In this document: one piece after another, positions 5,681 to 37,459 of the stretch
How the letters are laid out: every line of letters starts with the position of its first letter
How positions within the stretch are numbered: position 1 is the stretch's first letter
Source: an uncultured Candidatus Saccharibacteria bacterium
Lineage (GTDB): Bacteria; Patescibacteriota; Minisyncoccia; Phycocordibacterales; Phycocordibacteraceae
NCBI GenBank assembly: GCA_964650475.1
Contig: CAZYRK010000005.1
Span: forward strand, 1-37,459
Length of the DNA stretch: 37,459 nt
Direction: 5' to 3'
Notes under the pieces: model-generated
The model's database searches: none
What the model was told of the DNA's origin: nothing
Seen by the model: the letters and a program-made list of their open reading frames with translations, nothing else
Translations under genes and position numbers: made by a program

Positions 5681-6058
5681 CTATAAAGTAGGATATGTCG
5701 GTGCGGAGTATCCTCCGAGTCCGAAAAAGTTTGAAAGCAAAGCAACAAGTCCCCATACCGAGAAAATAATTGCGAAGCCGATGACTCCATACATAATAAA
5801 CTTAGTTCCCTCACTGCGTTTTTCCGGGTTTGCCCCACCAGAAATAAAATAAGTATAGATACCCCAGACAAATGTTATAAACGCAATTGATACAATAATC
5901 GGAAGCACTATATGATTTATCAAATAAACAAATTTCATTTCATATGAAGTCGCCATCGACAAATTAAGACCTATGGCGCGCGTAACAAACGGCGAGATAA
6001 CGCTTGCAAGAGTAGCTATCGGTACAAATAAGCGTATTGCGGAAAAAGGTGCTTTCAT
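5681..6058 (-). CDS. VirB2/TrbC-like (CPR-type) pilin-like membrane protein
   Basis: 125 aa; two TM helices linked by GG-NPEKR-EG, IMYGVIGFAIIFSVWGLV. Confidence 0.75.
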   Translation of the reverse strand: MKAPFSAIRLFVPIATLASVISPFVTRAIGLNLSMATSYEMKFVYLINHIVLPIIVSIAFITFVWGIYTYFISGGANPEKRSEGTKFIMYGVIGFAIIFSVWGLVALLSNFFGLGGYSAPTYPTL

Positions 6059-6070
6059 AAAGAAATATAA

Positions 6071-6568
6071 CTAATAAGATAACGGTATCTGTGGAGCCGT
6101 TTGCCCGGTAAGACCAAATGTTGAAGCCACAATATTTACCAACCCCCACAAACTCACCATAACAGCAAAACCGATTATTCCGTACAAAATAAGTTGCTTA
6201 CCCTTTTCTTGCCCTTCTGCGGAATCACCCTGCGCGATAAAATACTTGTAAATGCCCCACAAAAAAGTAATGAAAGATATGGCAAAAATTAACGGTATCA
6301 ATACACCGTTAATTATATAAAGAATAGTCTGACCTATGCCAACTACACCGCCACGATTTACCGAAAGCCCGTTATTAAAAAGATTTCCAAAAGATACACC
6401 CAAACCATAACTCACGTTTTTATCTCCACCAGTAGCCCCCAAAAGAAGCCCTACTTTTGCTTGTACAGGTGCTGTTGGAATAAAAAGAACGCCTACCAAC
6501 ACACTAAGTGCCACGTACTTCAAGAAGCTTTTTGTTTTTCGAACAATCATATTGTTTTTGTAATTCAT
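6071..6568 (-). CDS. VirB2/TrbC-like pilin-like membrane protein with signal peptide and Gly-rich N-terminal region
   Basis: Start moved to 6568 (ATGA overlap with upstream gene); FLWGIYKYFIAQGDSAEGQEKGKQLILYGIIGFAVMVSLWGLV. Confidence 0.75.
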   Translation of the reverse strand: MNYKNNMIVRKTKSFLKYVALSVLVGVLFIPTAPVQAKVGLLLGATGGDKNVSYGLGVSFGNLFNNGLSVNRGGVVGIGQTILYIINGVLIPLIFAISFITFLWGIYKYFIAQGDSAEGQEKGKQLILYGIIGFAVMVSLWGLVNIVASTFGLTGQTAPQIPLSY

Positions 6569-6810
6569 GAAATACCGAGAGTTACGAGCAGTAAACGCAC
6601 AAGACCCCAAACTGAGAATAATAATACCATGCCGAGTATGCCCCACAACATAAACGAGTGCGCTTCTTGGCGCTTTGTACTGTCGGTGCTGAAAAAGAAA
6701 TTTTTAACGACCCCTGTAATGAACACAAAAAAAGTGAGCGTTATTATAATTGGTATAACGATATAGCTAAATGCGTCGATTATTTCTTTTATGAAGTGTG
6801 CGAAGGTCAT
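6565..6810 (-). CDS. Short VirB2/TrbC-like pilin-like membrane protein (81 aa)
   Basis: Start moved to 6810 (ATGA overlap); FITGVVKNFF...KRQEAHSFMLWGILGMVLLFSVWGLV. Confidence 0.72.
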   Translation of the reverse strand: MTFAHFIKEIIDAFSYIVIPIIITLTFFVFITGVVKNFFFSTDSTKRQEAHSFMLWGILGMVLLFSVWGLVRLLLVTLGIS

Positions 6811-9039: not shown

Positions 9040-9055
9040 ACTTTATATTATAGCA
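9040..9055 (-). promoter_or_regulatory. Consensus extended -10 promoter, leaderless geometry
   Basis: Minus strand TG-C-TATAAT (9055-9047), 7 nt, then ATG at 9039. Confidence 0.6.
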
Positions 9056-9119
9056 AACGACCGGTACTTCGTGTGCGTGTAATCAACAGGCTGTAACCAA
9101 CAGTAGACACGGAACGTTT

Positions 9120-12647: not shown

Positions 12648-12690
12648 GTAGAGCGCGACAAAAAAACTGCGTTTTTTTGTCGCGCTCTAC
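12648..12690. repeat. Perfect 20-bp-stem palindrome between divergent genes
   Basis: GTAGAGCGCGACAAAAAAAC-TGC-GTTTTTTTGTCGCGCTCTAC. Confidence 0.85.
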
Positions 12691-12824
12691 TCAAACAAAA
12701 CAAAATGAAGTTATTTTAGTTTCGGTGTGTATTGACAATATTTACGTCTTGCCACAATATATCTTGTGGATAGTGCTTGTTTACAAATACCTGTAACAAG
12801 CAAAAAATAAACATGGAGGTGTTT

Positions 12825-13019
12825 ATGAAAAAGGACAAAGAGCAGCGAGAGAAAAGGTTGTCCGAATTGGAAAGAGAATGGGAAGATGACGACTTGGACG
12901 TCGGGCATCTAAGCGATGCAAGGTGGAAAAAGTTGGCAACATCTCCGAAATCTTTTTTGAATCCTATGTATTCAAAAAGAGAAACAAGGGATACCCCTAC
13001 GCCAAGCACTGGGGGGTAA
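12825..13019 (+). CDS. Small charged hypothetical protein (64 aa)
   Basis: SD GGAGGT (12815-12820) 4 nt before ATG; MKKDKEQREKRLSELEREWEDDD...; downstream hairpin. Confidence 0.6.
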   Translation: MKKDKEQREKRLSELEREWEDDDLDVGHLSDARWKKLATSPKSFLNPMYSKRETRDTPTPSTGG

Positions 13020-13025
13020 GACAAA

Positions 13026-13049
13026 AAGGCACTCAATCACGAGTGCCTT
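13026..13049 (+). terminator. Hairpin after the small ORF; probable terminator
   Basis: AAGGCACTC-AATCAC-GAGTGCCTT. Confidence 0.55.
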
Positions 13050-13064
13050 AAACATTTTATAATA

Positions 13065-13093
13065 TTTACATACTTGCTTTTCTCTGATACTCT
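13065..13093 (+). promoter_or_regulatory. Sigma70-type promoter for rpsA
   Basis: -35 TTTACA (13065-70), 17-nt spacer, TG at 13085-86, -10 TACTCT (13088-93). Confidence 0.5.
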
Positions 13094-13112
13094 TTTTTTA
13101 CTAACGAAAGTG

Positions 13113-13185
13113 GAGCGCTCCGAGGGGTGCTTTAGAAGTCGCGAGCGGGCTAACACTGGTAAGGAAACGAACCGGAACCCATCGC
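13113..13185 (+). promoter_or_regulatory. Candidate structured 5' leader RNA of rpsA
   Basis: GC-rich two-hairpin segment in an AT-rich intergenic region: GAGCGCTC-CGAG-GGGTGCTT, and GCGA/GGG/CTGGT paired with ACCGG/CCC/TCGC. Confidence 0.45.
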
Positions 13186-13210
13186 AAAACCATTTTCGTA
13201 CAATATTTTA

Positions 13211-14364: not shown

Positions 14365-14413
14365 AAAACAAACCGGGCGCGATGGCATTCTGCCATCGCG
14401 CCCGGTTTGTTTT
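14365..14413. terminator. Bidirectional terminator-like perfect 23-bp hairpin between convergent rpsA and pth
   Basis: AAAACAAACCGGGCGCGATGGCA-TTC-TGCCATCGCGCCCGGTTTGTTTT. Confidence 0.8.
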
Positions 14414-14436
14414 AATCACAAGCTGTTTTGACACCC

Positions 14437-15036
14437 CTATTTCTTTGTATTTGCAAACTGCATTGCAGACTCGACACCTTCAACAGCAAAAAGATGTGCC
14501 GAGAGAACGGCTTTTTTTAGCGCTTTGTTTATAGCGAGTTTTTCTTTTGGAGAAAATTTTCCAATAACATGCTTAATCACCCGCTCTTCACCGGATGGTT
14601 TTTTTATTTTCCCTTTTGGTGTTGCGGGGGAAATTCCGATTTTTATCTGCGCAAAATCTTTCGTTTTTATTGCTCGCATAATACTCTCGATACCTTTATG
14701 CCCTCCGGACCCGTGCCCGAAAGTCATTTTAATTTTACCAATCGGCATATCCAAATCGTCACGCAATACAAGTAATTTTTCAGAAGCCTTTTTGGACTTA
14801 GCAAGTGTCATCACAGACTTTCCGGATAAGTTCATCATAGTTTCCGGAAGTGCCAGCACTGTTTTCGTCCCATCGATATCCCCTTTCGAAATAAGTGCTT
14901 GCGATTTTTTGTTTAATGTAAAGTTTTCAAACTGCTCTTTCTTTGCAAGAGCCTCGACAGCCATACGCCCCGCGTTGTGACGAGTTTTCGCATACTCTGC
15001 CCCAGGATTTCCAAGACCAACAATAACAGTATTCAT
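14437..15036 (-). CDS. pth: Peptidyl-tRNA hydrolase
   Basis: 199 aa; IVGLGNPG-EYAKTRHNAG, PETMMNLSG, DDLD, GSGGHKG. Confidence 0.96.
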   Translation of the reverse strand: MNTVIVGLGNPGAEYAKTRHNAGRMAVEALAKKEQFENFTLNKKSQALISKGDIDGTKTVLALPETMMNLSGKSVMTLAKSKKASEKLLVLRDDLDMPIGKIKMTFGHGSGGHKGIESIMRAIKTKDFAQIKIGISPATPKGKIKKPSGEERVIKHVIGKFSPKEKLAINKALKKAVLSAHLFAVEGVESAMQFANTKK

Positions 15037-15166
15037 AATTTATTTATTAAACGCTATTGCGACCGGTCTGACAAATCACAATACACACAGCGAGCAAATA
15101 AAACATGATTTCTAAATTATTTTAATAATTAATTAGCATTAAATTGCACTGTTTTTAAGCGAAAAT

Positions 15167-17318: not shown

Positions 17319-17720
17319 ATGGGTGGTCTTACAATACGAAACTTTACCCGGCGCAACGTGCCGGGTTCTCCATTTGAAAAAGCACTTTCTCTCATACTTC
17401 CCGACTGGGAAATCTCACTTGTTTTTGTAGGAGAAACTCGTGCAAAAAATCTAAATATTCGCCTGCGAAAAAAAACATACACACCGAACGTTCTTTCATA
17501 TGAACTCGGAAAAAACAGCGGTGAGATATTTATATGTCCAAAAATTGCTGTCAAAAACGCGAGTTCTTTCGGTCTTTCGTCCAGTAATTTCATACTACTT
17601 TTATTTATCCACGGTTTATTGCATTTGAAAGGATACCGACACGGCACTACAATGGAAGAACACGAACGAAAATTCCTTTCACGCATTGTTAGGAACAGCG
17701 CTTGTATACAAAAAAAATGA
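17319..17720 (+). CDS. ybeY: rRNA maturation endoribonuclease YbeY
   Basis: Start moved to 17319; LNIRLRKK-YTPNVLSY, GEIFIC, IHGLLHLKGYRH metal motif. Confidence 0.9.
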   Translation: MGGLTIRNFTRRNVPGSPFEKALSLILPDWEISLVFVGETRAKNLNIRLRKKTYTPNVLSYELGKNSGEIFICPKIAVKNASSFGLSSSNFILLLFIHGLLHLKGYRHGTTMEEHERKFLSRIVRNSACIQKK

Positions 17721-22521: not shown

Positions 22522-23345
22522 TACTCTTCGCAACCGATTTAGATCGCACACTTTTGCCAAACGGACCTGCTCCAGACGATAAAAACACCGCCGAGCTTTT
22601 TAGAGAACTCGAGAAAGTCCCCCACCTGCTTGTTTACGTTACAGGAAGAAACCTCGACATGGTGCGCGAGGCGGAAGAAAAATACAGCATCCCGACACCA
22701 GACTACCTCATTGCCGAAGTCGGCACAGCCATGTTTAAAAAACAAAACATGGCTCTTGTGCCGGAAACGCGCTGGAACGAATACATAACGGCGCATGAAC
22801 AAAAATGGAATCGTGAAAAAATAGAGGAGTCCATTGGCACGAAGCACGAGCTCGTACTTCAAGAAGAGTGGAAACAAAACCACTTCAAGATAAGCTACTA
22901 TCTGCCAAGCACTGCCTCAAAAAAAGACGCTCTCGAGCATATCGGCAACGTGCTCGCGGATATTGGCATTCATGCAAACGTTTTGTGGAGCGTCGACCCT
23001 CTTGCAGACAATGTCGGGCTCATAGACATACTCCCAAAGACAGCTACAAAAGCCACCGCACTTGAGTTTTTGCGTGAGCAAGAGTATCTTTCCAAAAAAG
23101 ATGTCGTGTACTGCGGAGACAGTGGAAACGATATCCAACCACTCACAAACGGCTACAGATCAATTTTAGTTAATGATGCCCCGGAAGATGTAAAAGAAAC
23201 TGTTTCCAATATCGTCGCAAAAAACGGCAACTCCGACACCCTATACATAGCGCACAAAACAAAAAACCTAAACGGAAACTACGCCTCCGGCATCCTAGAA
23301 GGACTCATCCATTTTGGAATAGTGCCCGGCACGGAAGCGGAGTAG
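22518..23345 (+). CDS. HAD-IIB phosphatase, sucrose-phosphate phosphatase-like
   Basis: 275 aa; TDLDRTLLPNG motif I, YVTGR, PDYLIAEVGT, KISYY, IDILP--ATKATAL, GDSGND; ATGA overlap with the GH gene. Confidence 0.85.
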   Translation: MILFATDLDRTLLPNGPAPDDKNTAELFRELEKVPHLLVYVTGRNLDMVREAEEKYSIPTPDYLIAEVGTAMFKKQNMALVPETRWNEYITAHEQKWNREKIEESIGTKHELVLQEEWKQNHFKISYYLPSTASKKDALEHIGNVLADIGIHANVLWSVDPLADNVGLIDILPKTATKATALEFLREQEYLSKKDVVYCGDSGNDIQPLTNGYRSILVNDAPEDVKETVSNIVAKNGNSDTLYIAHKTKNLNGNYASGILEGLIHFGIVPGTEAE

Positions 23346-23402
23346 TGCACGCGACATAAAATAAACAGCCTACACGCCAAACAAAAGCAAAAACAAGCCG
23401 GC

Positions 23403-23939
23403 TTAGTCCTGCTCTCCACTACCTTTCGCTACGTACCTTTCTCTCCATTCGTTAAGAATTTTTGCTAAATCTTTCGCTTTTTTATTGTACGTATCTGGCA
23501 AACCTCCATCTGCTCCGGAGACGGATTTTGACAGTTCCTTACCAACATCCGATGCAATACTTTCATCCGATGCAATACTTTCTGAATCAAAACTTTGACT
23601 GTAATTAAAAGTAACTTTTTTTGCACCACCCAACAAGAAAAATCCGATATATTTAGTTCCAAAACTCTCCACATCACTCCATTTTGTAAAAGTACTTCGA
23701 GACATTACACATACTTCAAACCCTTTTTCAGATAAACGGAGATAAGAACGTTTGTGTGAAAAATTTATAACCGCCACAAAAGAACTAAAACCAAAGAATA
23801 TTAAAATCAGCCAACCAGTAAGGTCTCCCGTACTCGCCAACCAGACACCTCCTACAGTAAAGAACAGCGATATACTTAAAATTACAAACGACTTTAATTT
23901 GCTTGGATACAGGACTAAAGATTTTTGATTTTTATTCAT
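23403..23939 (-). CDS. Hypothetical membrane protein (two N-terminal TMs plus PH-like beta region; STM3941-like)
   Basis: 178 aa; LVLYPSKLK, two TM helices, LRLSEKGF, I-WSDV-type motif, LAKILNEWR; internal ESIASD duplication. Confidence 0.65.
   Translation of the reverse strand: MNKNQKSLVLYPSKLKSFVILSISLFFTVGGVWLASTGDLTGWLILIFFGFSSFVAVINFSHKRSYLRLSEKGFEVCVMSRSTFTKWSDVESFGTKYIGFFLLGGAKKVTFNYSQSFDSESIASDESIASDVGKELSKSVSGADGGLPDTYNKKAKDLAKILNEWRERYVAKGSGEQD
23547..23582. repeat. In-frame 18-bp tandem duplication
   Basis: ATCCGATGCAATACTTTC x2, encoding ESIASD-ESIASD on the minus strand. Confidence 0.9.
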
Positions 23940-24116
23940 AATTTTTCGGGGATATCTTTTTTTAAACTTAACCTTACAAAAGTAACGATTATTAAATATA
24001 CTATTTTAAGTATACCAAACATGTCTATAATAAAAAACAATGGGGTCTATTGCAATACAACAGTTAGTAGGAACGAACTATACAATACTTAGCCCCCCCG
24101 AACAAACGCTACTCCC

Positions 24117-24650
24117 TTATTTTTCCATAAGAGAAATTAGTTTATTTAATTCTGTGATACTTTTTCTCCTTTCCTCAAATAACGCTTTTGGGAATGTCTT
24201 TTTATACTCATTTATATCTCTTCGTTTTTTCTTCTCGATATAATCTGATTCAAATTCTTTTTTACACCACGCCGAAGTTTTGTTTATAAACAACTCACCC
24301 TCACGTAAAACCGACAATAACAACGCTTCAAGACATGGCAAATTTTCTATTAACTCTATACTTCTTGATTTTGCTTCTTTACGCGCTCCTGTAATTTCTT
24401 GCTCACCCTTATCATTATCTACAACCACAATACGATTATCAAAACCACCGATTTCGTTCACTGCGCAAACAACAACATCTTTTGGTGTACCGCCTTTGCC
24501 ATTTCGAATAGTTACAGATATACCACTATTGCGATTATACAGCCCTCGCAAATACTTTAAAAACATTTCCTCGCCAAGACCTTCACCATATATAAGAAGA
24601 GTCTGTTTTGCAGCATGCCGTTTCTTTTTATAAGGATTCGTTCGCGACAT
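24117..24650 (-). CDS. RloB / AbiLii-like TOPRIM-related protein
   Basis: 177 aa; LIYGEG-GE--FLKYL, VVVDND, LPCLEALLL; directly downstream of an AAA_21 ATPase. Confidence 0.75.
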   Translation of the reverse strand: MSRTNPYKKKRHAAKQTLLIYGEGLGEEMFLKYLRGLYNRNSGISVTIRNGKGGTPKDVVVCAVNEIGGFDNRIVVVDNDKGEQEITGARKEAKSRSIELIENLPCLEALLLSVLREGELFINKTSAWCKKEFESDYIEKKKRRDINEYKKTFPKALFEERRKSITELNKLISLMEK

Positions 24651-24662
24651 GATAGCGTAATC

Positions 24663-25874
24663 TTATTGAAGTTTTGGCACGGCACCATATGCACCAGCAA
24701 TGTATTTAGTGTAATAATTTTCGTCTGATCGCACGCCAGAAACATCATCAAGTCGCCAAGCTTCACTAACGCCACTCTTATTTTTCTCTACAAGCACAAC
24801 TTGGTATTTATCCAGTTTGTTCAAAATTACATGGCTGTGTGTACTGAAAAATAACTGAGCATCGTGAGGATTTGTTTCCGGCTGCACAAACAAATCAAAA
24901 AGTGCCATTACCATTTCCGGATGCAGGTTTACATCAAACTCGTCAACAACCGCTATACTTCCATACATCAATGCCGTCAAAATACTTTTCAAAAGTACGA
25001 ACAACTGCTTTGTCCCCGACGATTCATAATTTAAACTTAGAGGATATTTTTCGCCGTCTATAGTATGAACAGCATGAGCATGCAAGTTTACCCCGTTTTC
25101 TGTCGCTTTTTTTATAATTTCAAATTCAGACAAACCAAGATCAAAACGAGAAAGTAATTTTTCAGCTTCTTCTTTAAGCACCTTGTTTTCGCTGTAAAAA
25201 TTAAGTGCTTCAAATAACTGCTGTGTGGCATTTGGCAAAAGCTGTCCACCAACCCAACCGGCTTCTATCACGTTTGTTTCCAACCGTTGCCATGCTGTAG
25301 CGATATCGCGACTTTCTTTATGTTCCAATCGCGCCGCTGTACTAATAACACTTGCATTTGTGCGAAGTAGATTTTCAAAATCTTTTGGCAAGCCAAAACT
25401 ATCTCCGGAAAATTCATACTGTTTTTTATCTTTATTCCATGTGCGAGAAAATACTTTCTTGCTTGATTTCTTTTCTTTAATGAACTCTGTTAACCTTAAT
25501 TCCTCTGATAAAATTTTGTATTGTGTAAGTTTAAAACTATAGGTATATACTTTGCCATCCACCTCAAAAACAACCGAAAGCTCTATAGCTTTTTTTTTGT
25601 TTTTGCCGAATGCAAAATTCTTCACAGGCAATTGCGCGCCTGGGTCAGACTTAAAAGAATCGGTAATAAGCCACTTTAAAAAAGGTAAAATCTTTAGAAG
25701 ATTTGTTTTTCCGGATGCGTTTGAACCAATTACCGTGATTACTTTTGAAAGACGCGTACCTGATTTAGACTCAAAATAGCCATTATTTTTAGGAGCGTTA
25801 TCATTAACAACAAAGTCAACGGTCGTTTCATCACCAAACGAATAGAAATTCTTGCAAGTAAATGAATGTATCAT
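24663..25874 (-). CDS. RloA / AbiLi-like ABC-type (AAA_21) ATPase
   Basis: 403 aa; FTCKNFYSF, Walker A GSNASGKTN, signature ESSGTKQ, Walker B VVDEFD--LHP, FSTHS, Y-AGAYGAVP. Confidence 0.85.
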   Translation of the reverse strand: MIHSFTCKNFYSFGDETTVDFVVNDNAPKNNGYFESKSGTRLSKVITVIGSNASGKTNLLKILPFLKWLITDSFKSDPGAQLPVKNFAFGKNKKKAIELSVVFEVDGKVYTYSFKLTQYKILSEELRLTEFIKEKKSSKKVFSRTWNKDKKQYEFSGDSFGLPKDFENLLRTNASVISTAARLEHKESRDIATAWQRLETNVIEAGWVGGQLLPNATQQLFEALNFYSENKVLKEEAEKLLSRFDLGLSEFEIIKKATENGVNLHAHAVHTIDGEKYPLSLNYESSGTKQLFVLLKSILTALMYGSIAVVDEFDVNLHPEMVMALFDLFVQPETNPHDAQLFFSTHSHVILNKLDKYQVVLVEKNKSGVSEAWRLDDVSGVRSDENYYTKYIAGAYGAVPKLQ

Positions 25875-26204
25875 GATTTTGTGATTAAAATGATAATTTT
25901 CTTATCATTGCAAACATAACAAATAAATACCTGTTTTGCAAGCATTTCCACGAGATTTTGTGGAAACTTGAGAAAAGTATCCTGTTTTAGGCACTTTTAT
26001 TAAAAACCCTCAGTAGTTTTTCAAACCAAAAAAACGACTTCCCTGTTCCTTGCACGCCCTAATTAAGGTACATAACTAACTCTACCGCACCACGGCCCTA
26101 CTTTCCTACTTTCACTTAAATGAAAACCAAAGCTACATGTTCTCGCTTTTTTGTCATCGCCAAATTTCATGTCTGTAAAAAACCGCACGCTCCCCAAGCA
26201 GGCG

Positions 26205-26861
26205 TTATAACTTAAACTTTTTAAGTAACTCAACCTCGTGGCCTGAAAATGGCTGGCAAAATATTTGTTGATTACCAAAAGTCAAAATCTTTTCTCCGGT
26301 GTTATTAAAATGATTTGCCACACCGCTACCGAGCAAAAAGATAGAATCCTCCTCGGTCGCTACAGCAAAAACAATTTTAAGATTGATAAAATCTTTAATC
26401 CATTTATCTAAATATCCTCTATCTATTCTACTTGTTGAATAGATTGTATAAATGTTGTCTCGCTCCTTAAGTTTCTCAAATGCGCTTTCAATGCCTTTGC
26501 GGTTTTTGTAAACCATATCGCATTCCTCAATATGGATAAAAATTTTCTTATCTGTTTTTAAATCACTTATTTCGTGGAGAACATTTATCGCCTCCTCGGG
26601 TTCACTAATAACCGGTTTTATTAAATAATCAGATGACCAGTTATAGAAATCTGTTTTTGTCATATCAAGAAAAACGAAACCAATTTCGTCTGGTGAATAT
26701 TTCTCGACTAATTCTTTATAGAAATTAAGGTGAAATATACTTTTACCTGAAGCGGTTTGACCAGCCAATAACACGAAATTTATTTTTTCTTTATCAAAAT
26801 CTATCTCGATTTTTCTCCCATTTTTATCATTCCCTAAATATATTTTTTTCATACTTTTCAA
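26205..26861 (-). CDS. Stand-alone FtsK/SpoIIIE-like P-loop ATPase domain
   Basis: 218 aa; IYLG-DKNG, VLLAGQTASGKS Walker A, FVFLD; Walker B position reads IFIHIEE. Confidence 0.75.
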   Translation of the reverse strand: MKSMKKIYLGNDKNGRKIEIDFDKEKINFVLLAGQTASGKSIFHLNFYKELVEKYSPDEIGFVFLDMTKTDFYNWSSDYLIKPVISEPEEAINVLHEISDLKTDKKIFIHIEECDMVYKNRKGIESAFEKLKERDNIYTIYSTSRIDRGYLDKWIKDFINLKIVFAVATEEDSIFLLGSGVANHFNNTGEKILTFGNQQIFCQPFSGHEVELLKKFKL

Positions 26862-26924
26862 TCAAAAAATTATAAAATATTCTGTCCCCGCTTCACTTCG
26901 TTTCGCTGAGCTTCGCGACGACTC

Positions 26925-26952
26925 GGTTCGAATCCTCCCCGCTCTCGCAAAA
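26925..26952 (+). repeat. Degenerate inverted copy of the tRNA-Ser T-arm/acceptor 3' end
   Basis: + strand GGTTCGAATCCTCCCCGCTCTCGCAAAA versus tRNA-sense GGTTCGAATCCCTCCCTCTCCGCAAAA (27014-26988, minus). Confidence 0.7.
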
Positions 26953-26992
26953 GCATAGTCCCGAAACAGCATGCCTTTTGCTCCTTGTTTTG

Positions 26993-27079
26993 CGGAGAGG
27001 GAGGGATTCGAACCCTCGATACAGTTGCCCGTATGCCGGTTTTCGAAACCGGTGCCTTCGACCACTCAGCCACCTCTCC
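26993..27079 (-). tRNA. tRNA-Ser(CGA), long variable arm, CCA not encoded
   Basis: GGAGAGGTGGCTGAGTGGTCGAAGGCA-CCGGT-TTCGAAA-ACCGG-...-GAGGGTTCGAATCCCTC-CCTCTCC-G. Confidence 0.97.
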
Positions 27080-27136
27080 TTTCGCGCGTAAAACTAAACG
27101 CTACGCAGGTATCCTAACATATTTTGTATACAAAAA

Positions 27137-30509: not shown

Positions 30510-31776
30510 AACCTCGTGCGATGAAACCGCAATAGCTATAGTGGAAGCTGTCGGGGACGAAACTTCTGCCACCTTTCAAATACAAGGAGACGCCTTACTT
30601 TCGCAAATAGAATTGCATCGACCATACGGAGGTGTTTTCCCAAACCTCGCAAAGCGTGAACATGCAAAAAATATAATTCCACTCACCCGCGCAGCGCTTG
30701 AAGAGTCTGGTCTGCTACACCAAAATGCAAACGCCGTATCTACTGAAAAGAGAAACCGCATCGCTTCTCTTTTTACACACGACCAAGATCTTGCTGAGCA
30801 ATTTTTCGATTTTGTAACAGAAGTCGAACCGCCAGAAATAGATGCTATCGCCGTTACGGCATGTCCGGGGCTTGAACCGGCGTTGTGGGTTGGTGTAAAC
30901 ACCGCAAAAGCTTTTTCCATTTTTTGGGACAAACCTCTCGTAGCCGTTAATCATATGGAGGGGCACATACTTTCCGCACTGGCAAAAACCAAAAACAATG
31001 GCTCCACCGAAACACCGATGCTTGAGATTTCAAATGTCGAGCTACCTGTTCTCGCGCTTCTTATTTCCGGTGGTCATACCGAGCTTACAGTAATGCGCAA
31101 ATGGCTTTCATATGAACTTATCGGAGAAACGCGCGACGATGCCGTCGGCGAAGCCTTCGACAAAGTCGCGCGTTTGCTCGGACTTCCATACCCTGGAGGA
31201 CCAGAAATATCAAAACTCGCGGAAGATGTTCGTGCATCCACGGAGGAAAAAGAGGCTGGTGACTTACCTGCAAAAACTTCGGATAAGCAAGACCGCCGAG
31301 AACAGGAAAAAGATGCTTTCATGTGCAAACTTCCCCGCCCGATGATACAAGACCAATCATGCGACTTCTCATTCGCTGGGCTCAAAACTGCCACAAGATA
31401 TTTAATACAAGACCTTGGCGAAATAAACGACTCTACAAAATCGCAAATTGCACTCGAGTTTGAAAATGCCGTAACAGATGTCCTTCTTTCAAAAACACTG
31501 CGCGCACTTAAAGAAACCGGAGCAAAAACACTCGTGCTTGGTGGAGGAGTTTCCGCAAACAAACATATCCGCGAGGTTTTCACAAAAGAAATCGCGCACG
31601 CACATCCGGAAGTGTCTCTTAAAATACCTCAAGCATCTTTAACAACCGACAACGCCATTATGATTGCGCTCGCCGGTTTCTATCGTGCTTCGCGCCACGA
31701 ATACGCAGATACAGAATCTCTCACACCGAGCGGTTCGAAGTCTCTTGCTAAAAAACCGACTAACACCGCCAGCTAA
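30490..31776 (+). CDS. tsaD: tRNA threonylcarbamoyladenosine transferase TsaD, with lineage-specific insertions
   Basis: Start moved to 30490 (MKLLAIETSCDET); HMEGH, LLISGGHT, DDAVGEAFDKVAR, YPGGP, FSFAGLKT, GGVSAN, TDNAIMIA. Confidence 0.95.
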   Translation: MKLLAIETSCDETAIAIVEAVGDETSATFQIQGDALLSQIELHRPYGGVFPNLAKREHAKNIIPLTRAALEESGLLHQNANAVSTEKRNRIASLFTHDQDLAEQFFDFVTEVEPPEIDAIAVTACPGLEPALWVGVNTAKAFSIFWDKPLVAVNHMEGHILSALAKTKNNGSTETPMLEISNVELPVLALLISGGHTELTVMRKWLSYELIGETRDDAVGEAFDKVARLLGLPYPGGPEISKLAEDVRASTEEKEAGDLPAKTSDKQDRREQEKDAFMCKLPRPMIQDQSCDFSFAGLKTATRYLIQDLGEINDSTKSQIALEFENAVTDVLLSKTLRALKETGAKTLVLGGGVSANKHIREVFTKEIAHAHPEVSLKIPQASLTTDNAIMIALAGFYRASRHEYADTESLTPSGSKSLAKKPTNTAS

Positions 31777-32060
31777 AACTACGCGATACGTTGCGATGCA
31801 TTTGGGAAGGTCTAACCTTCCCAAAATGTTAGACGATCTATCATGATGAAAAACCACGCGCTACATTACAAGAGGTAGGGTGCTCCAGGCCGCTAGGCCG
31901 AGCCTTACCCTACGCTCTTGCAACGTACCATATGCTTTTTAGTTGTGGAAAAGTTGGGAAGGTTAGACCTTCCCAACTAAAAACGTAGTATGGGAGTTCG
32001 TATCTCGATAACAACTCGTAAGAACCCGCGGTGTTTTTTACAAAACACCGCGGGTTCTTA
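31776..32060. repeat. Mosaic palindromic repeat cluster after tsaD (modules A and B plus two hairpins)
   Basis: B ACGCGATACGTTGC 31781-94; A TTTGGGAAGG-TCTAA-CCTTCCCAAA 31801-25; hairpin 31869-31920; inverted B 31920-29; inverted A 31952-78; 19-bp perfect hairpin 32019-60. Confidence 0.85.
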
Positions 32061-32739: not shown

Positions 32740-34938
32740 ATGGACGACGCCTTTCGAAAACCATATAAATCTGTCGATACTGAGCCTAAAATATATGAGC
32801 TGTGGGAAAAGAGCGGTATGTTTAACCCCGACAATTTACCGGACGCAAAAAACCGCGAACCTTTTTCAATAGTGCTTCCACCGCCAAACGTGACCGGTCG
32901 CCTGCATATGGGTCATGCACTTATCCTTTCTCTGGAAGACATAATCATTCGTTTCAAACGCATGCGCGGGTACCGAACACTCTGGCTCCCCGGCACCGAC
33001 CACGCGGCAATCGCAACGCAGTCTGTCGTCGAGAAGAGAATTCAAAAAGAAGAAAAGCTAAATCGCCACGACCTTGGGCGCGATGAGCTACTAAAACGTA
33101 TAGAAAAATTCGCAAACGAAAGTCACGACACCATCATCTCTCAGATAAAAACAATGGGAGCATCTGTCGACTGGTCACGTGAAGTTTTCACTCTCGACCA
33201 AACACGTAGTTTGGCGGTGCGCACCATGTTTAAAAAAATGTACGATGCCGGTCTTATTTACAGAAGCAACCGTATTGTAAACTGGGATCCAAAAGGACAA
33301 ACAACAATCTCTGATGACGAAATTGTTTATAAAGAACGCTCCACCACTCTTTATACTTTCCGATACAGCAAAGACTTCCCTATCCCCGTAGCGACCACGC
33401 GCCCCGAAACCAAAGTGGGCGATGTCGCTGTTGCTGTGCACCCAGACGATACCCGCTACAAAGACTTTATCGGAAAAGAATACAATCTTACTTTTTGCGA
33501 TGTACCAATTCATATTAAAGTCGTTGCAGATTATGCTGTCGACATGGAATTTGGCACCGGAGCGGTGGGTGTTACACCTGCGCATAGCCAAACAGACTGG
33601 GATATTGCAGAGCGCCACAATTTACCGCGAAAACAAATCATAAATGAATACGCAAAAATGACCGTATCGGGTCGTCTTGAAAACAAAAAAGTAGCAGAGG
33701 CGCGCGAAATGGTAGTAGCATGGCTTCGCGAAGAAAACTTGCTCGAAGAAGAACAAGAAATGACACACAACGTCTCTACCGCAGAGCGCACAGGAGGAAC
33801 AATCGAACCGCTACCAAAACTACAATGGTTTATCGACGTAAACAAACAGTTCACAATCCCTAACTCAAAAATTTCAGGTATCGAATCCGGAAGCGAAACG
33901 ACACTGAAAGAAATGACACGTAAAGCCGTAGAGAGTGGTGACATAAAAATTCTTCCGGAACATTTTGTAAAAACGTATTTCCACTGGATTGATAACCTGC
34001 GCCCGTGGTGCATAAGCCGTCAGATATGGTACGGGCACCGTATCCCCGTATGGTATCGCGGTGAAGAAATATATGTTGGTATTGAAGAACCTTCCGAAGA
34101 CGGCTGGAAACAAGACCCCGACACCCTCGACACATGGTTCTCTTCCGGTCTATGGACATTTTCCACCATGGGTTGGCCTGAGGCATGGGATATGGAAAAA
34201 GGAGTGGCAAAAGAAGGCAGTGACCTCGCCGTTTGGCGTCCTACAGATATTCTCGAAACAGGACACGATATTTTATTTTTCTGGGTTGCACGCATGGTGC
34301 TTATGACAGGCTTCGCGCTTGGCGAAATTCCTTTCAAAACAGTGTATCTAAACGGTCTTGTGCGCGATGCCAAAGGTCGAAAAATGTCGAAATCTCTCGG
34401 AAACAATCTCGATCCGCTAGACGTAACCGAAAAATTCGGTACCGACGCAACACGTATGGCACTTGTGGTTGGCAACGCACCTGGCATGGACACGCGTATA
34501 AGCGAGGAGAAAATTAAAGGCTACAAACATTTTGCAAACAAGCTGTGGAATATCTCACGTTTTATTTTGGAACGTACCGATGAAATAGACCTAGCGGAAA
34601 AGCTCTCCGAGACTGATGCCAAGATTTATGGCGAGCTTTCAAAAATTGTTCGCGAAGTTTCAGAAGACATAGATGCATACCGCATACACATAGCCGCAGA
34701 AAAACTTTATCACTTTACATGGCACAGACTTGCCGATGAAATACTCGAGGAATCGAAACCGATACTTTTGGATGGTGATGAAGTCGCGCGCGCTTCGCGC
34801 GCGCGACTTCTGCGCGACACCCTAGACACTATCCTAAAACTCCTACACCCTTTTATGCCTTTTATAACCGAAGAAATATGGCAACGTATCCCCAACCAAT
34901 CTGAAAAAATGCTTATGACCGCCACGTGGCCGAGTTAA
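32740..34938 (+). CDS. valS: Valine--tRNA ligase lacking the C-terminal coiled-coil arm
   Basis: 732 aa; PPPNVTG-LHMGH, GTDHAAIATQ, ATTRPET, WCISRQIWYGHRIP, DTWFSS, KMSKSLGN; ends at TATWPS. Confidence 0.97.
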   Translation: MDDAFRKPYKSVDTEPKIYELWEKSGMFNPDNLPDAKNREPFSIVLPPPNVTGRLHMGHALILSLEDIIIRFKRMRGYRTLWLPGTDHAAIATQSVVEKRIQKEEKLNRHDLGRDELLKRIEKFANESHDTIISQIKTMGASVDWSREVFTLDQTRSLAVRTMFKKMYDAGLIYRSNRIVNWDPKGQTTISDDEIVYKERSTTLYTFRYSKDFPIPVATTRPETKVGDVAVAVHPDDTRYKDFIGKEYNLTFCDVPIHIKVVADYAVDMEFGTGAVGVTPAHSQTDWDIAERHNLPRKQIINEYAKMTVSGRLENKKVAEAREMVVAWLREENLLEEEQEMTHNVSTAERTGGTIEPLPKLQWFIDVNKQFTIPNSKISGIESGSETTLKEMTRKAVESGDIKILPEHFVKTYFHWIDNLRPWCISRQIWYGHRIPVWYRGEEIYVGIEEPSEDGWKQDPDTLDTWFSSGLWTFSTMGWPEAWDMEKGVAKEGSDLAVWRPTDILETGHDILFFWVARMVLMTGFALGEIPFKTVYLNGLVRDAKGRKMSKSLGNNLDPLDVTEKFGTDATRMALVVGNAPGMDTRISEEKIKGYKHFANKLWNISRFILERTDEIDLAEKLSETDAKIYGELSKIVREVSEDIDAYRIHIAAEKLYHFTWHRLADEILEESKPILLDGDEVARASRARLLRDTLDTILKLLHPFMPFITEEIWQRIPNQSEKMLMTATWPS

Positions 34939-34947
34939 AATAAAAAC

Positions 34948-35652
34948 GTGACTATCTCTTCAATCGCCACAATAATAGTAAGCGGAATACTTCCGCCTCT
35001 TTTATGGCTTTATTTTTTACTGAAAGAAGACTCTCGAAACCCCGAACCGAAGCGTATTATCGCTCTGGCATTTTTTGCAGGCATGCTTTGCGTTCCTATT
35101 GCGATTCCTATTGAACAGTACACATACGCGCACCTTAGCAAAACCCTCTTAGTTGTTATTTCGTGGGCAACAATAGAAGAAACTGTAAAATATGCGCTCG
35201 CCGCCCTTTTAATACTCTGGCGACCCGCGGTAGACGAACCGCTCGATTATGTGATTTACCTTATTACCGTAGCTCTCGGTTTTGCAGCAATGGAAAACAT
35301 GCTTTTTCTTTTTTCACCGGTTACAGCCGGACACCTTACAAGCTGGTTTATAATAGGTGACCTACGCTTCCTCGGAGCAAACATTTTACACGTTGTCGCA
35401 TCTGCAACGATAGGTTTTGCGTTTGCTTTTTCGTACGCAAAAAAACCTGTAGTACGAATGCTGTACGCATCGGTCGGCGTTATCCTCGCCATATCATTGC
35501 ACGCTGGGTTTAATCTACTTATAATGAGTCAAGGTGGATCGCGCGCGTTCGAAGCACTCTTATTGGTATGGAGTAGCCTCATTGTTGTGCTCGCACTGTT
35601 TGAAGTTGTAAAATATCGCACCTACAGAAATTTACCAGCCCATATTCGCTAA
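34948..35652 (+). CDS. prsW: PrsW-family intramembrane glutamic metalloprotease
   Basis: 234 aa, multi-TM; PEP, IEETVK, LGFAAMEN, LHVVASA, LHAGFN. Confidence 0.9.
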   Translation: MTISSIATIIVSGILPPLLWLYFLLKEDSRNPEPKRIIALAFFAGMLCVPIAIPIEQYTYAHLSKTLLVVISWATIEETVKYALAALLILWRPAVDEPLDYVIYLITVALGFAAMENMLFLFSPVTAGHLTSWFIIGDLRFLGANILHVVASATIGFAFAFSYAKKPVVRMLYASVGVILAISLHAGFNLLIMSQGGSRAFEALLLVWSSLIVVLALFEVVKYRTYRNLPAHIR

Positions 35653-35721
35653 CCATTAAAGAACTCATTTCAAAAGACTCACAAAAAGCTCTGATTTGAT
35701 TTCCAGTACAATTTCCATTCT

Positions 35722-36192
35722 ATGTTTAAAAAACGCTCCATTTTCTCACGGCTATCAGGCACTGTGCCAAATGACGAAAAGTTCGACTCGTTTGAAGACG
35801 AGTTTCCAGAACCGCAAACAAATAACGACAAGATAACTGAGGAGCTTGAGGAAGAAGCAGACGCAGGACAGCTTCCGACAGACGTGTTTCAAACACCGGA
35901 CGATATAATAATCCATGCTTTTGTAGCCGGAGTGCGTCCGGACGAGCTCAATGTTTCCATAAGTCGCGACATTGTTGTCATCGAAGGAACGCGTGCGGAG
36001 ATACAACAGGTTTCCGAGGCAGATTACTTCACGCGCGAGCTTTTCTGGGGCTCTTTCACACGAACAATAATGCTCCCGCAAGAAGTAGACGTGGACAACG
36101 CCGTTGCACACTCAAAAGACGGATTAATGACGATTACACTCCCAAAACTCGACCGAACAAAACAAACAAAACTACGCGTTAAGTCCGGCTAA
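35722..36192 (+). CDS. Small heat-shock protein (Hsp20/alpha-crystallin)
   Basis: 156 aa; DVFQTPDDIII, GV-PDELNV, RELFWGSF-R-I-LP, KDGLMTITLPK. Confidence 0.92.
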   Translation: MFKKRSIFSRLSGTVPNDEKFDSFEDEFPEPQTNNDKITEELEEEADAGQLPTDVFQTPDDIIIHAFVAGVRPDELNVSISRDIVVIEGTRAEIQQVSEADYFTRELFWGSFTRTIMLPQEVDVDNAVAHSKDGLMTITLPKLDRTKQTKLRVKSG

Positions 36193-36207
36193 TTTCCACA
36201 CCGATAC

Positions 36208-36256
36208 CAAAAACCAAAACACCAAACCGCGTAGCGGTTTGGTGTTTTGGTTTTTG
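36208..36256 (+). terminator. Perfect 23-bp hairpin after hsp20
   Basis: CAAAAACCAAAACACCAAACCGC-GTA-GCGGTTTGGTGTTTTGGTTTTTG. Confidence 0.8.
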
Positions 36257-36297
36257 CCACATCCTCACCAGTATCCTCACTCTGTACATAAAATATT

Positions 36298-36650
36298 TTG
36301 GGAAGGTCTAACCTTCCCAACTTTCCAAACTAAAAAGTACGCGGTACGTTTGCGATGGATAGGGAAAGACCCGGGGTGAGCGGTCTCGAGCGTCTCTGCC
36401 GACACTTAGTGTCGGCAGAAAGTAATGTAGCTAATGTAGCGCGGGGCTTTGCGGACACTTAGTGTCGGCAGAGAGAGAAAACCACGCGATACGTTGCAAG
36501 AGCGTGAGGAAAATCTAGTGGCAAGCTCCACTACGGGGCTTTGCGGACACTAAGTGTCCGCAAAAGACACTTAGACACTTTGCGGACACTTAGTGTCCGC
36601 AAAAAGAGGCCCGCTAGAATTAACAGCTAAAAACCTAAGCGGTACGTTGC
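36298..36650. repeat. Mosaic palindromic repeat cluster downstream of tRNA-Phe (modules A, B, C)
   Basis: A 36298-36320; B 36339-53, 36484-97, 36637-50; C core GACACT(T/A)AGTGTC at 36401, 36454, 36546, 36585. Confidence 0.9.
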
Positions 36651-36670
36651 GGTTGCAATTTTAAACAAAA

Positions 36671-36747
36671 TGGTGCCTGGGGTCGGATTTGAACCGACGA
36701 CCCTTCGCTCTTCAAGCGAACGCTCTAACCAACTGAGCTACCCAGGC
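36671..36747 (-). tRNA. tRNA-Phe(GAA), CCA encoded, G37
   Basis: GCCTGGGTAGCTCAGTTGGTTAGAGCG-TTCGC-TTGAAGA-GCGAA-GGGTC-GTCGGTTCAAATCCGAC-CCCAGGC-ACCA. Confidence 0.97.
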
Positions 36748-36833
36748 AGATAACAAAAATATAACATATCCTTATGTGTTTTGCCTCCCACGAACACTCC
36801 AGAACTCTACTATTACCCGCACCTAGCGATACT

Positions 36834-37175
36834 TTAAGGTGTAGAGGTAACCTGCTGTACCGCCTGTGTTGCGGTGTGCGAAAGATTCTTTGCTGTATCA
36901 AGAGCGTGCTGTATAGAGCTAACAGACGGTAAACCAAGAGCATTTAAGATGTGATTTCCACCAGAACCGCCTGCGGGAATAATGCTCGCCACAATCGGAG
37001 CCAAATATGTAAAATAAAGATACGTAGGAATTCCGAACATGATAATCCAAAAAAGTATCTTACCGACAAAACCAAAACGCGCGGAGCGGCGCATCGAGTG
37101 AAGCATTTTGTTGTTTTCTTTGGAAACAGAAATACTCTCCTCCAACAAATCTCTCATATCTTTATCTCCTTCCAT
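36834..37175 (-). CDS. Hypothetical single-pass membrane protein (start may be the second Met at 37157)
   Basis: 113 aa; N-terminal LLEE-I-VSKENNKMLHSMRR, one TM; TG-G-TAAAAT upstream; AAGGAG before the second Met. Confidence 0.7.
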   Translation of the reverse strand: MEGDKDMRDLLEESISVSKENNKMLHSMRRSARFGFVGKILFWIIMFGIPTYLYFTYLAPIVASIIPAGGSGGNHILNALGLPSVSSIQHALDTAKNLSHTATQAVQQVTSTP

Positions 37176-37230
37176 ATCCTCCGTATTTTACCACATAGAA
37201 ACCCGCACATGTTTTATAACTCCACACTGT

Positions 37231-37420
37231 TTGCGGTACGTTGCAAACAGGGCCGACAGTTGGGAAGGTCTAACCTCTTCCCAACTCTGCCGACACTTAG
37301 TGTCGGCAGAAAGTAATGTAGCTAATGTAGCGCGGGGTTTTGCGGACACTTAGTGTCCGCAAAACCCACTTAGACACTTTGCGGACACTTAGTGTCCGCA
37401 AAAAACTTAGTGTCCGCAAA
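37231..37420. repeat. Mosaic palindromic repeat cluster downstream of the edge tRNA (modules B, A, C)
   Basis: B 37231-44; A with 2-nt insertion 37258-86; C core at 37292, 37345, 37384 plus a half-site at 37405-20; 37285-37357 matches 36394-36466 at 72/73. Confidence 0.9.
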
Positions 37421-37437
37421 AAAACACATTTTGAATG

Positions 37438-37459
37438 TGCCCTCGGCAGGAATCGAACC
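37438..37459 (-). tRNA. 3' end of a tRNA truncated by the window edge (identity uncertain, possibly Arg)
   Basis: Minus strand GGTTCGATTCCTGC-CGAGGGC-A: T-loop, T-stem and acceptor 3' strand; anticodon lies outside the window. Confidence 0.75.

Follow-up and report, generated by a model that had tools for sequence, protein, structure and literature searches.

Palindromes around tRNA genes of a Paceibacteria-type bacterium are very probably the repetitive extragenic palindromes of a REP/REPIN-RAYT system

The window analysed here is a stretch of 37,459 nt that makes up one complete contig, CAZYRK010000005.1, and the subject of this report is a short palindrome, family A, that is repeated near its right-hand end. 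Two clusters of this palindrome, a candidate repetitive extragenic palindrome (REP), lie on either side of a tRNA-Phe gene and a 113-aa open reading frame (ORF), and the contig ends 57 nt past the last full REP, within a tRNA-Arg gene (Table 1). The remainder of the window encodes housekeeping functions, with mreB, gyrA, ftsZ, ftsA, pth, lepB, tsaD, hsp20 and prsW recognised in a Pfam scan. The valyl-tRNA synthetase gene (32740-34938) has its closest named relatives, about 70% identical, in Candidatus Paceibacterota, Minisyncoccia, Kaiserbacteria and the Parcubacteria group.

The exact core GACACTWAGTGTC occurs seven times in the window, at 36401, 36454, 36546 (with central A), 36585, 37292, 37345 and 37384, against a mean count of 0 in 100 dinucleotide-preserving shuffles. 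The full unit, 25 nt long, forms a nearly perfect hairpin, T(T/C)TGC(G/C)GACACTWAGTGTC(C/G)GCA(A/G)A, in which the central base is the sole asymmetry. Two units have C-type arms (TCTGCC..GGCAGA), four have G-type arms (TTTGCG..CGCAAA) and one is a hybrid, which sits 53 nt from the preceding unit and so belongs to a 53-nt tandem period. The inverted doublet at 36540-36603, whose units are separated by a 14-nt spacer, is 100% complementary and folds at -36 kcal/mol (z -12). Each cluster also holds one copy of a 77-nt direct repeat, a composite of two REPs and their spacer; the copies are identical at 75 of 77 positions, and at 72 of 73 over 36394-36466 versus 37285-37357. A second direct repeat, of 72 nt, matches 36534-36605 to 37333-37404 at 94% identity. 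Doublets resembling the 77-nt repeat, at about 80% identity, recur at related loci L011, L073, L079, L084, L090 and L095. An earlier reading of this DNA, made from its sequence alone and called here the sequence-only reading, had described seven cores in two clusters, two arm sets, one hybrid, half-sites and the 72/73-nt direct repeat; all are confirmed in the window, and the repeat extends further, to 75/77. At gathering score, Rfam 15 finds tRNAs only, and the REPs match just unrelated microRNA hairpin models, below threshold (E up to 1).

The same arrangement appears in other assemblies. Locus L066 (VAPL010462975.1), an independent assembly, is 100% identical over window positions 35338-36830, which include the first cluster; L089 is 100% identical up to window position 36447; and L096 is about 97% identical across both clusters. 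Because L066 and L096 reproduce it, the cluster structure is not a one-off misassembly, an outcome that the sequence-only reading had named as one that would undo its case.

Two further repeated elements had escaped the sequence-only reading. A second palindrome, GGAAGGTCTAACCTTCC (family B), is found in the window at 31805, 31957 (reversed), 36301 and 37263, and a linker motif, AAAACYACGCGRTACGTTGC, is found in at least six places, all within the same two intergenic regions. The clusters are mosaics, since family A units, family B units and linker modules combine in them. A mosaic cluster at 31775-31976, between tsaD and a DUF5122 gene, has two family B units, three linker copies and no family A unit.

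Table 1. Palindromic units, linker modules and neighbouring genes of the window (positions are those of the window)
Feature	Position	Strand	Remarks
Family A unit, C-type arms, TCTGCCGACACTTAGTGTCGGCAGA	36395-36419		Single-stranded DNA hairpin -12.8 kcal/mol, z -7.6
Family A unit, hybrid arms (left TTTGCG, right GGCAGA)	36448-36472		Weaker hairpin, -6.9 kcal/mol
Family A unit, G-type arms, central A	36540-36564		Inverted doublet with 36579-36603
Partial REP GACACTTAGACAC	36566-36578		Left half and loop; right arm without match
Family A unit, G-type arms, central T	36579-36603		
Family A unit, C-type arms	37286-37310		Central T (A in L096)
Family A unit, G-type arms	37339-37363		
Family A unit, G-type arms	37378-37402		Within 57-nt stretch missing in L096
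Extra tandem arm and loop ACTTAGTGTCCGCAAA	37405-37420		Half-site after unit 37378-37402
Composite REP doublet, copy 1 of 77-nt direct repeat	36394-36470	+	C-type REP, 28-nt spacer, second REP
Composite REP doublet, copy 2 of 77-nt direct repeat	37285-37361	+	
Family B unit TTGGGAAGGTCTAACCTTCCCAA	36298-36320		
Family B unit, imperfect	37260-37284		2-nt insertion; perfect in L096
Family B unit	31802-31824		Outside the span of the sequence-only reading
Family B unit, opposite orientation	31954-31976		129 nt from unit 31802-31824
Linker module AAAAAGTACGCGGTACGTTTGCGATGGATAGGGAAAGACCCGGGGTGAGCGGTCTCGAGCGTC, conserved	36332-36394	+	Next to REPs at many loci; beside the RAYT gene in L011 and L084
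Short linker copy AAAACCACGCGATACGTTGC	36478-36497	+	
Short linker copy	36631-36650	+	Adjoins tRNA-Phe
Linker core GCGGTACGTTGC	37233-37244	+	
tRNA-Phe (GAA)	36671-36747	minus	Between both REP clusters; context, outside the repeat system
113-aa ORF	36834-37175	minus	Hydrophobic stretch; between the clusters; context only
tRNA-Arg (CCT), 3' part	37438-37459 (22 nt)	minus	Cut by contig end; based on L096 967-1039

To follow the palindrome beyond the window, metagenome contigs were scanned with TGCSGACACTWAGTGTCSGCA and genome contigs with the 17-mer CSGACACTWAGTGTCSG. The metagenome scan returned 97 cores, all with the same arms, on 30 contigs, all but one of them (29/30) from the VAPK, VAPL and VAPM assemblies, with G+C contents of about 40-49%; these assemblies also contain the window's own locus. 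The motif is therefore not limited to the two clusters, and hybrids are common, both in support of the sequence-only reading. The family B palindrome GGAAGGTCTAACCTTCC is dispersed on VAP contigs too. In the genome contigs, CSGACACTWAGTGTCSG gave 60 matches, mostly lone unrelated palindromes in about the number expected by chance, and only L011 and L027 are informative. Lone copies in unrelated phyla (L015, L017, L019, L021, L032, L034, L039, L057 and others) mostly sit atop longer terminator-like palindromes; such copies were rejected as homologs and are taken as a selection effect of querying with a GC-rich palindrome. Viral contigs gave 0 matches to the palindrome.

At least 108 usable units, on 31 contigs, were collected in all, with the consensus T(T/C)TGC(G/C)GACACTTAGTGTC(C/G)GCA(A/G)A and variable sequence outside it. 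Most cores, 89 of 103 (86%), lie clear of long open frames (120 codons or more), even though such frames make up 83% of the DNA. Across 108 units, arm positions covary in ways that preserve pairing (Fisher p=8e-8 for -1/+13; p=6e-8 for -5/+17), and a single unit forms a stable single-stranded DNA hairpin of about -12 kcal/mol (z about -7). Hybrid-arm copies, mismatched at the inner arm pair, number 14 of the 108 (about 13%). The unit is followed by one to four extra tandem single arms in 36 of 110 cases, starting exactly at GTGTC; these may derive from cutting at the loop/stem boundary or from plain slippage, and the side that carries them is not coupled to the central base (21 T versus 15 A). 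Neighbouring units, spaced 29-145 nt apart, share the central base in 35 cases and have opposite ones in 28, counts to be read knowing that the symmetry of the unit makes its orientation ill-defined. Of 29 contigs, 21 have a copy no more than 150 nt from an end, and five Logan assemblies of the window locus all stop at 36322, 2 nt past the family B unit at 36298-36320. Breaks of this kind are the expected effect of a multi-copy repeat on short-read assembly.

The palindrome also flanks a transposase gene. L011 is a 1,284-nt contig with eight palindrome copies distributed on both sides of a 229-aa ORF, and its palindromes have the same arms, hybrid type and linker modules as those of the window. 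L084, from the VAPM metagenome, has a gene identical to that of L011 with the same modules adjoining, the palindrome being seen upstream only. Homologs in L027 (66% identical) and L098 (67%) have TGCCGACACTWAGTGTCGGCA on both sides. In total, 11 related loci link the palindrome to a gene of the Y1 type: it occurs on both sides in L011, L027, L098 (twice), L100, L102, L104, L105 and L106, and on the upstream side only in L084 and L107.

The L011 ORF passes the Pfam model Y1_Tnp (28.6 bits, cut-off 23), and its top NCBIfam family is NF047646, REP-associated tyrosine transposase (RAYT), with an E value of 1e-7. The motifs HVxNR, N-H-x-H (N85-H86-x-H88) and Y-x4-N (Y146...N151) are invariant in 27 aligned sequences. 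An AlphaFold model of the protein has a predicted local distance difference test (pLDDT) score of 91, and its top Foldseek match is 4ER8_A (E 4.7e-5; target-normalised TM score 0.63), the structure of E. coli RAYT in complex with a REP hairpin; IS608 and ISDra2 TnpA rank next. A phmmer search of the RAYT against PDB sequences returned nothing useful. The protein family, of which 53 members were found, has a length of about 230 aa, and its named members are annotated as transposases of Patescibacteria or Taylorbacteria. The sequence-only reading had suggested that the core is the substrate of a DNA-cleaving enzyme, with an HUH nuclease as a candidate, and the occurrence of the same palindrome around a RAYT-type Y1 gene in related contigs lends that suggestion support.

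Palindrome sequence varies together with the transposase clade. Homologs at a greater distance (50-63% identity) have variant GACAC-loop-GTGTC palindromes on their flanks, TGATGGACAC(G/T)TAGTGTCCATCA, TGGTATGACACGSCGTGTCATACCA or GACACTCCGTGTC; individual cases are P0018 (53% identical to the L011 protein) with TGATGGACACGTAGTGTCCATCA, P0013 with TGATGGACACTTAGTGTCCATCA, P0016 with TGGTATGACACGSCGTGTCATACCA and P0019 with GACACTCCGTGTC, while P0038 has a GACAC-containing inverted pair upstream. For a clade about 40% identical, comprising the second L098 gene and P0044, the flanking palindrome is GGAAGTCWGACTTCC, a sequence similar to the family B palindrome GGAAGGTCTAACCTTCC of the window. The two RAYT genes of L098 are just 41% identical and each has its own palindrome; like L098, the organism of the window probably pairs two REP families with two RAYT clades.

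Symmetric sites of this kind might instead be double-stranded operators or iterons of a dimeric DNA-binding protein, forming a regulon or organising the nucleoid. The perfectly symmetric half-sites and the iteron-like extra tandem arms (GTGTCSGCA) would fit such a role, but more than 100 copies lie in irregular clusters with spacings of 29-145 nt, the compensatory arm changes preserve pairing rather than a fixed half-site sequence, and the partner gene encodes an HUH transposase, not a regulator. We regard this explanation as extremely improbable.

Comparison with L098 provides evidence of movement. Window 5.7-16.9 kb and L098 5.2-19.6 kb are colinear, the GyrA proteins being about 75% identical, and L098 has extra pieces within this block. 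A RAYT cassette (L098 10001-10693) lies between a methyltransferase gene and gyrA, with its window counterpart at 9040-9119, and a second (14401-15105) lies between a Lactamase_B_3 gene and an S1 gene, with its counterpart at 12704-13210. No REP remnants were seen at the window sites matching both L098 RAYT cassettes, where the intergenic DNA is short. An inverted REP doublet with a 5-nt spacer (17572-17617) lies in frame within pth, the gene for peptidyl-tRNA hydrolase; it lengthens the protein by about 13-16 residues (..SRHLVSASNADTKCRQ..) in a region that is shorter in the window's own version, and window 14856-14875 is its empty site.

Cassettes of this form also invite comparison with an autonomous IS200/IS605-like element composed of the gene and two hairpins, with the gene-less palindromes, those of the window among them, as solo ends or derivatives resembling miniature inverted-repeat transposable elements rather than as partners of a domesticated, single-copy RAYT. 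The layout of hairpin, gene and hairpin is that of a minimal IS200, the two L098 cassettes occupy intergenic sites that are empty in the window across a 14-kb colinear block, and C-terminal fragments of RAYT genes, 70-95% identical, occur on L073, L093 and L097 from the same metagenomes. However, each cluster of RAYT homologs is found on one or a few contigs, with no near-identical duplicates on any one contig; the two L098 genes are divergent and have separate palindromes; gene-less REPs are far more numerous than genes; and the top fold and family matches are to RAYT rather than to IS200 TnpA. On balance, an autonomous element of this kind is unlikely. Among the REPs of L073 lies a C-terminal-only RAYT fragment (39-236, 70% identity), on a contig that also has the end of a 100%-identical RAYT gene; the fragment may be a decayed gene copy.

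Both the flanking of RAYT genes and the in-frame pth insertion are left unexplained if the palindromes work mainly through RNA, terminating neighbouring tRNA and mRNA transcripts or stabilising their 3' ends, and were repeated by duplication with no dedicated enzyme. Units do lie downstream of the minus-strand tRNA-Arg and tRNA-Phe genes and near tRNAs at several further loci, and secondary roles of that kind are described for REPs of other bacteria in PMC3733652. On both strands, however, a T run precedes the stem and an A run follows it; intrinsic termination fails as a reading because there is no U-tract on either strand, and a terminator scan flagged no family A unit. The likely terminators of this genome are long unique palindromes, such as that at 36208-36256. 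A mainly RNA-level role, with repetition by duplication alone, is thus very unlikely.

L096, a strain variant of the window locus and the only other strain found to have it, shows how the arrays change. Its left cluster has at least one more 53-nt unit than the window. A 32-nt indel at 36505-36540 and a 57-nt indel with its ends inside the palindrome, removing unit 37378 and its half-site, separate the two sequences, together with a T/A flip at the centre of unit 37292 and a 2-nt indel in a family B palindrome. The arrays expand and contract through palindromes; local change in copy number was expected by the sequence-only reading, and breakpoints inside the palindrome bear it out.

The same reading had further proposed that the direct repeats excise or amplify the intervening 0.9-kb segment, with 73-77-nt recombination sites mobilising tRNA-Phe and the membrane gene as a cassette. 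The two copies are indeed 97% identical to each other, compared with about 80% to copies elsewhere. L096 nevertheless keeps the order tRNA-Phe, ORF, tRNA-Arg with the segment intact and present once, no recombinase or integrase was seen among the 36 window ORFs scanned with Pfam, no contig joins the outer flanks directly, and the repeat is a generic REP doublet that recurs at other loci. A mobile tRNA-Phe cassette is, on these grounds, scarcely credible, and this part of the proposal is not upheld.

We consider it highly likely that the palindromes are the REPs of a Paceibacteria/Parcubacteria-type bacterium of the candidate phyla radiation (CPR), belonging to a REP/REPIN-RAYT system (REPIN, REP doublet forming a hairpin) whose RAYT is encoded elsewhere in the genome. 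Homology makes action of the enzyme on the REP hairpin the most likely course of events. The biochemistry known for E. coli TnpA-REP and for IS608/ISDra2 TnpA serves as the basis of the proposed mechanism, in which a RAYT-type Y1 HUH transposase, encoded elsewhere, would bind the hairpin as single-stranded DNA and would cleave and rejoin DNA via a covalent 5'-phosphotyrosine link, an activity that could seed REP singlets and inverted doublets into intergenic DNA. Recombination or slippage between close-set copies would then add or remove units, and we propose that events of this kind between neighbouring copies account for the 53-nt period, the hybrid arms, the half-sites and the 77-nt repeat. 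Both window clusters would be such arrays, in gene-free DNA around tRNA-Phe and tRNA-Arg.

Several observations weigh against this assignment. The RAYT homologs score 31.8 and 29.8 bits where the NF047646 cut-off is 80, and the sole sequence-level match in PDB, from a profile search, is ISDra2 TnpA at E 0.035. Neither tblastn nor the Pfam scan of ORFs finds a RAYT or other Y1 transposase gene in the window, and the RAYT contigs L011 and L084 belong to its genome only by inference. The classical GTAG/CGTC foot tag is absent: no 4-mer is conserved on the 5' side of the arms, and CGTC stands before just 6 of 33 C-type arms, where it belongs to the linker module. Replication slippage at hairpins could explain the strain indels without an enzyme, and the extra 53-nt unit of L096, a contig that starts within the repeat, could be an artefact of assembly. 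A variant of the same scheme is that the Patescibacteria Y1 clade, unlike E. coli RAYT and IS608, cuts at the apex or at the loop/stem boundary (GACAC|TWA|GTGTC), not at the foot, and that the cassette is perhaps still mobile, an intermediate from an IS200-type element to a domesticated RAYT. It is prompted by the (T/G)TAG at the apex, by the extra arms starting at GTGTC and by the L098 cassettes opposite empty window sites, and we hold it to be doubtful.

The system is no new kind of system but a known architecture in a new lineage; the undescribed repeat-based system supposed by the sequence-only reading has the architecture of REP/REPIN-RAYT. PMC5581495 and PMC3733652 describe short high-copy extragenic palindromes, the shared feature, for E. 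coli TnpA-REP with REP/BIME (bacterial interspersed mosaic element) and for the REPINs of Pseudomonas fluorescens SBW25. Further points of likeness are a Y1 HUH gene with one and the same palindrome on either flank, here at related loci; several REP families in a genome, each with a RAYT clade of its own; REPs paired as inverted doublets; insertions that now and then fall within genes; and the closest structure, 4ER8. The present system differs in its host, a CPR/Patescibacteria lineage, in its divergent and longer RAYT clade, whose protein of about 230 aa has an insertion ahead of the HUH strand and is extended by helices at the C-terminus, and in a unit that is almost perfectly symmetric, with (T/G)TAG at the apex and frequent extra tandem arms. 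As in the BIMEs of enterobacteria, REPs share their clusters with further short conserved motifs, combined in varying ways; in the present case these are the linker (AAAACCACGCGGTACGTTGCGATGGAT.GGGAAAGACCCGGGGTGAGCG...) and REP family B, whose sequences are unrelated to the BIME motifs.

With IS200/IS605 elements (IS608, ISDra2) the system shares the Y1 HUH fold and subterminal hairpins on both sides of tnpA, and the mechanism presumed here is theirs, with cleavage and joining of single-stranded DNA at the lagging-strand template. In those elements the left and right hairpins differ, cleavage falls outside the stem and the genes are near-identical and multi-copy, whereas here a single symmetric palindrome stands on either side of the gene, and it is the hairpin without a gene that occurs in many copies. 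TIGR-Tas systems (tandem interspaced guide RNA), of phages and parasitic bacteria, are alike in having short repeats or stem-loops arrayed in small-genome bacteria; their units have a regular 36-nt period with 9-nt variable spacers beside a Nop-domain Tas gene (PMC12045711), whereas here the spacing is irregular and the units are identical palindromes at many dispersed loci. A CRISPR or TIGR array was considered for the window and rejected, given the irregular spacing and since the scanned window ORFs showed no match to Cas or Nop-domain proteins.

The assignment places in Paceibacteria-type CPR bacteria a REP family of many members, together with two REP types that exist side by side and RAYT clades to match them. 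As the genomes of these bacteria are very small and gene-dense, repeats that persist within them are less to be expected. To our knowledge, work on REP-RAYT systems has so far dealt almost wholly with complete-genome Proteobacteria and Cyanobacteria. A search of the literature found no link of REP or RAYT to CPR bacteria, and the large complete-genome surveys consulted carry no mention of CPR. Because they break short-read assemblies, REPs matter for binning and closing the metagenome-assembled genomes of this lineage; the window contig and most related contigs end at them. The GACAC...GTGTC stem top, conserved across RAYT homologs 50-100% identical, offers a simple test of hairpin reading by a Y1 transposase.

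Other features of the window stand apart from the repeats. The 113-aa ORF between the clusters has no match in a Pfam search; relative to L096 it has six amino-acid changes, packed into about 50 nt (36990-37040) of the hydrophobic part, with the remainder identical, and this patch may be a recombination tract or reflect local diversification. Long perfect palindromes, each unique, stand at gene ends at 322-372, 12648-12690, 14365-14413, 32019-32060 and 36208-36256. With arms of 20-24 nt, loops of 3 nt and A/T-rich feet they are distinct from the REP families, and they are probably bidirectional terminators of the window's genome. A low-GC island at 23000-27100 (0.35-0.39 versus about 0.44) encodes on the minus strand an AAA_21/AbiEii-like ATPase (24663-25874), a RloB-like protein slightly below the Pfam cut-off (24117-24650) and an FtsK/SpoIIIE-like fragment (26205-26861), as well as a 178-aa ORF with no assignment. 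A tRNA-Ser gene (26992-27079) adjoins it, and the whole resembles a defence-type island acquired at a tRNA gene. Small genes with T4SS_pilin domains lie in tandem at 5681-6646, in synteny with L098 5192-7693.

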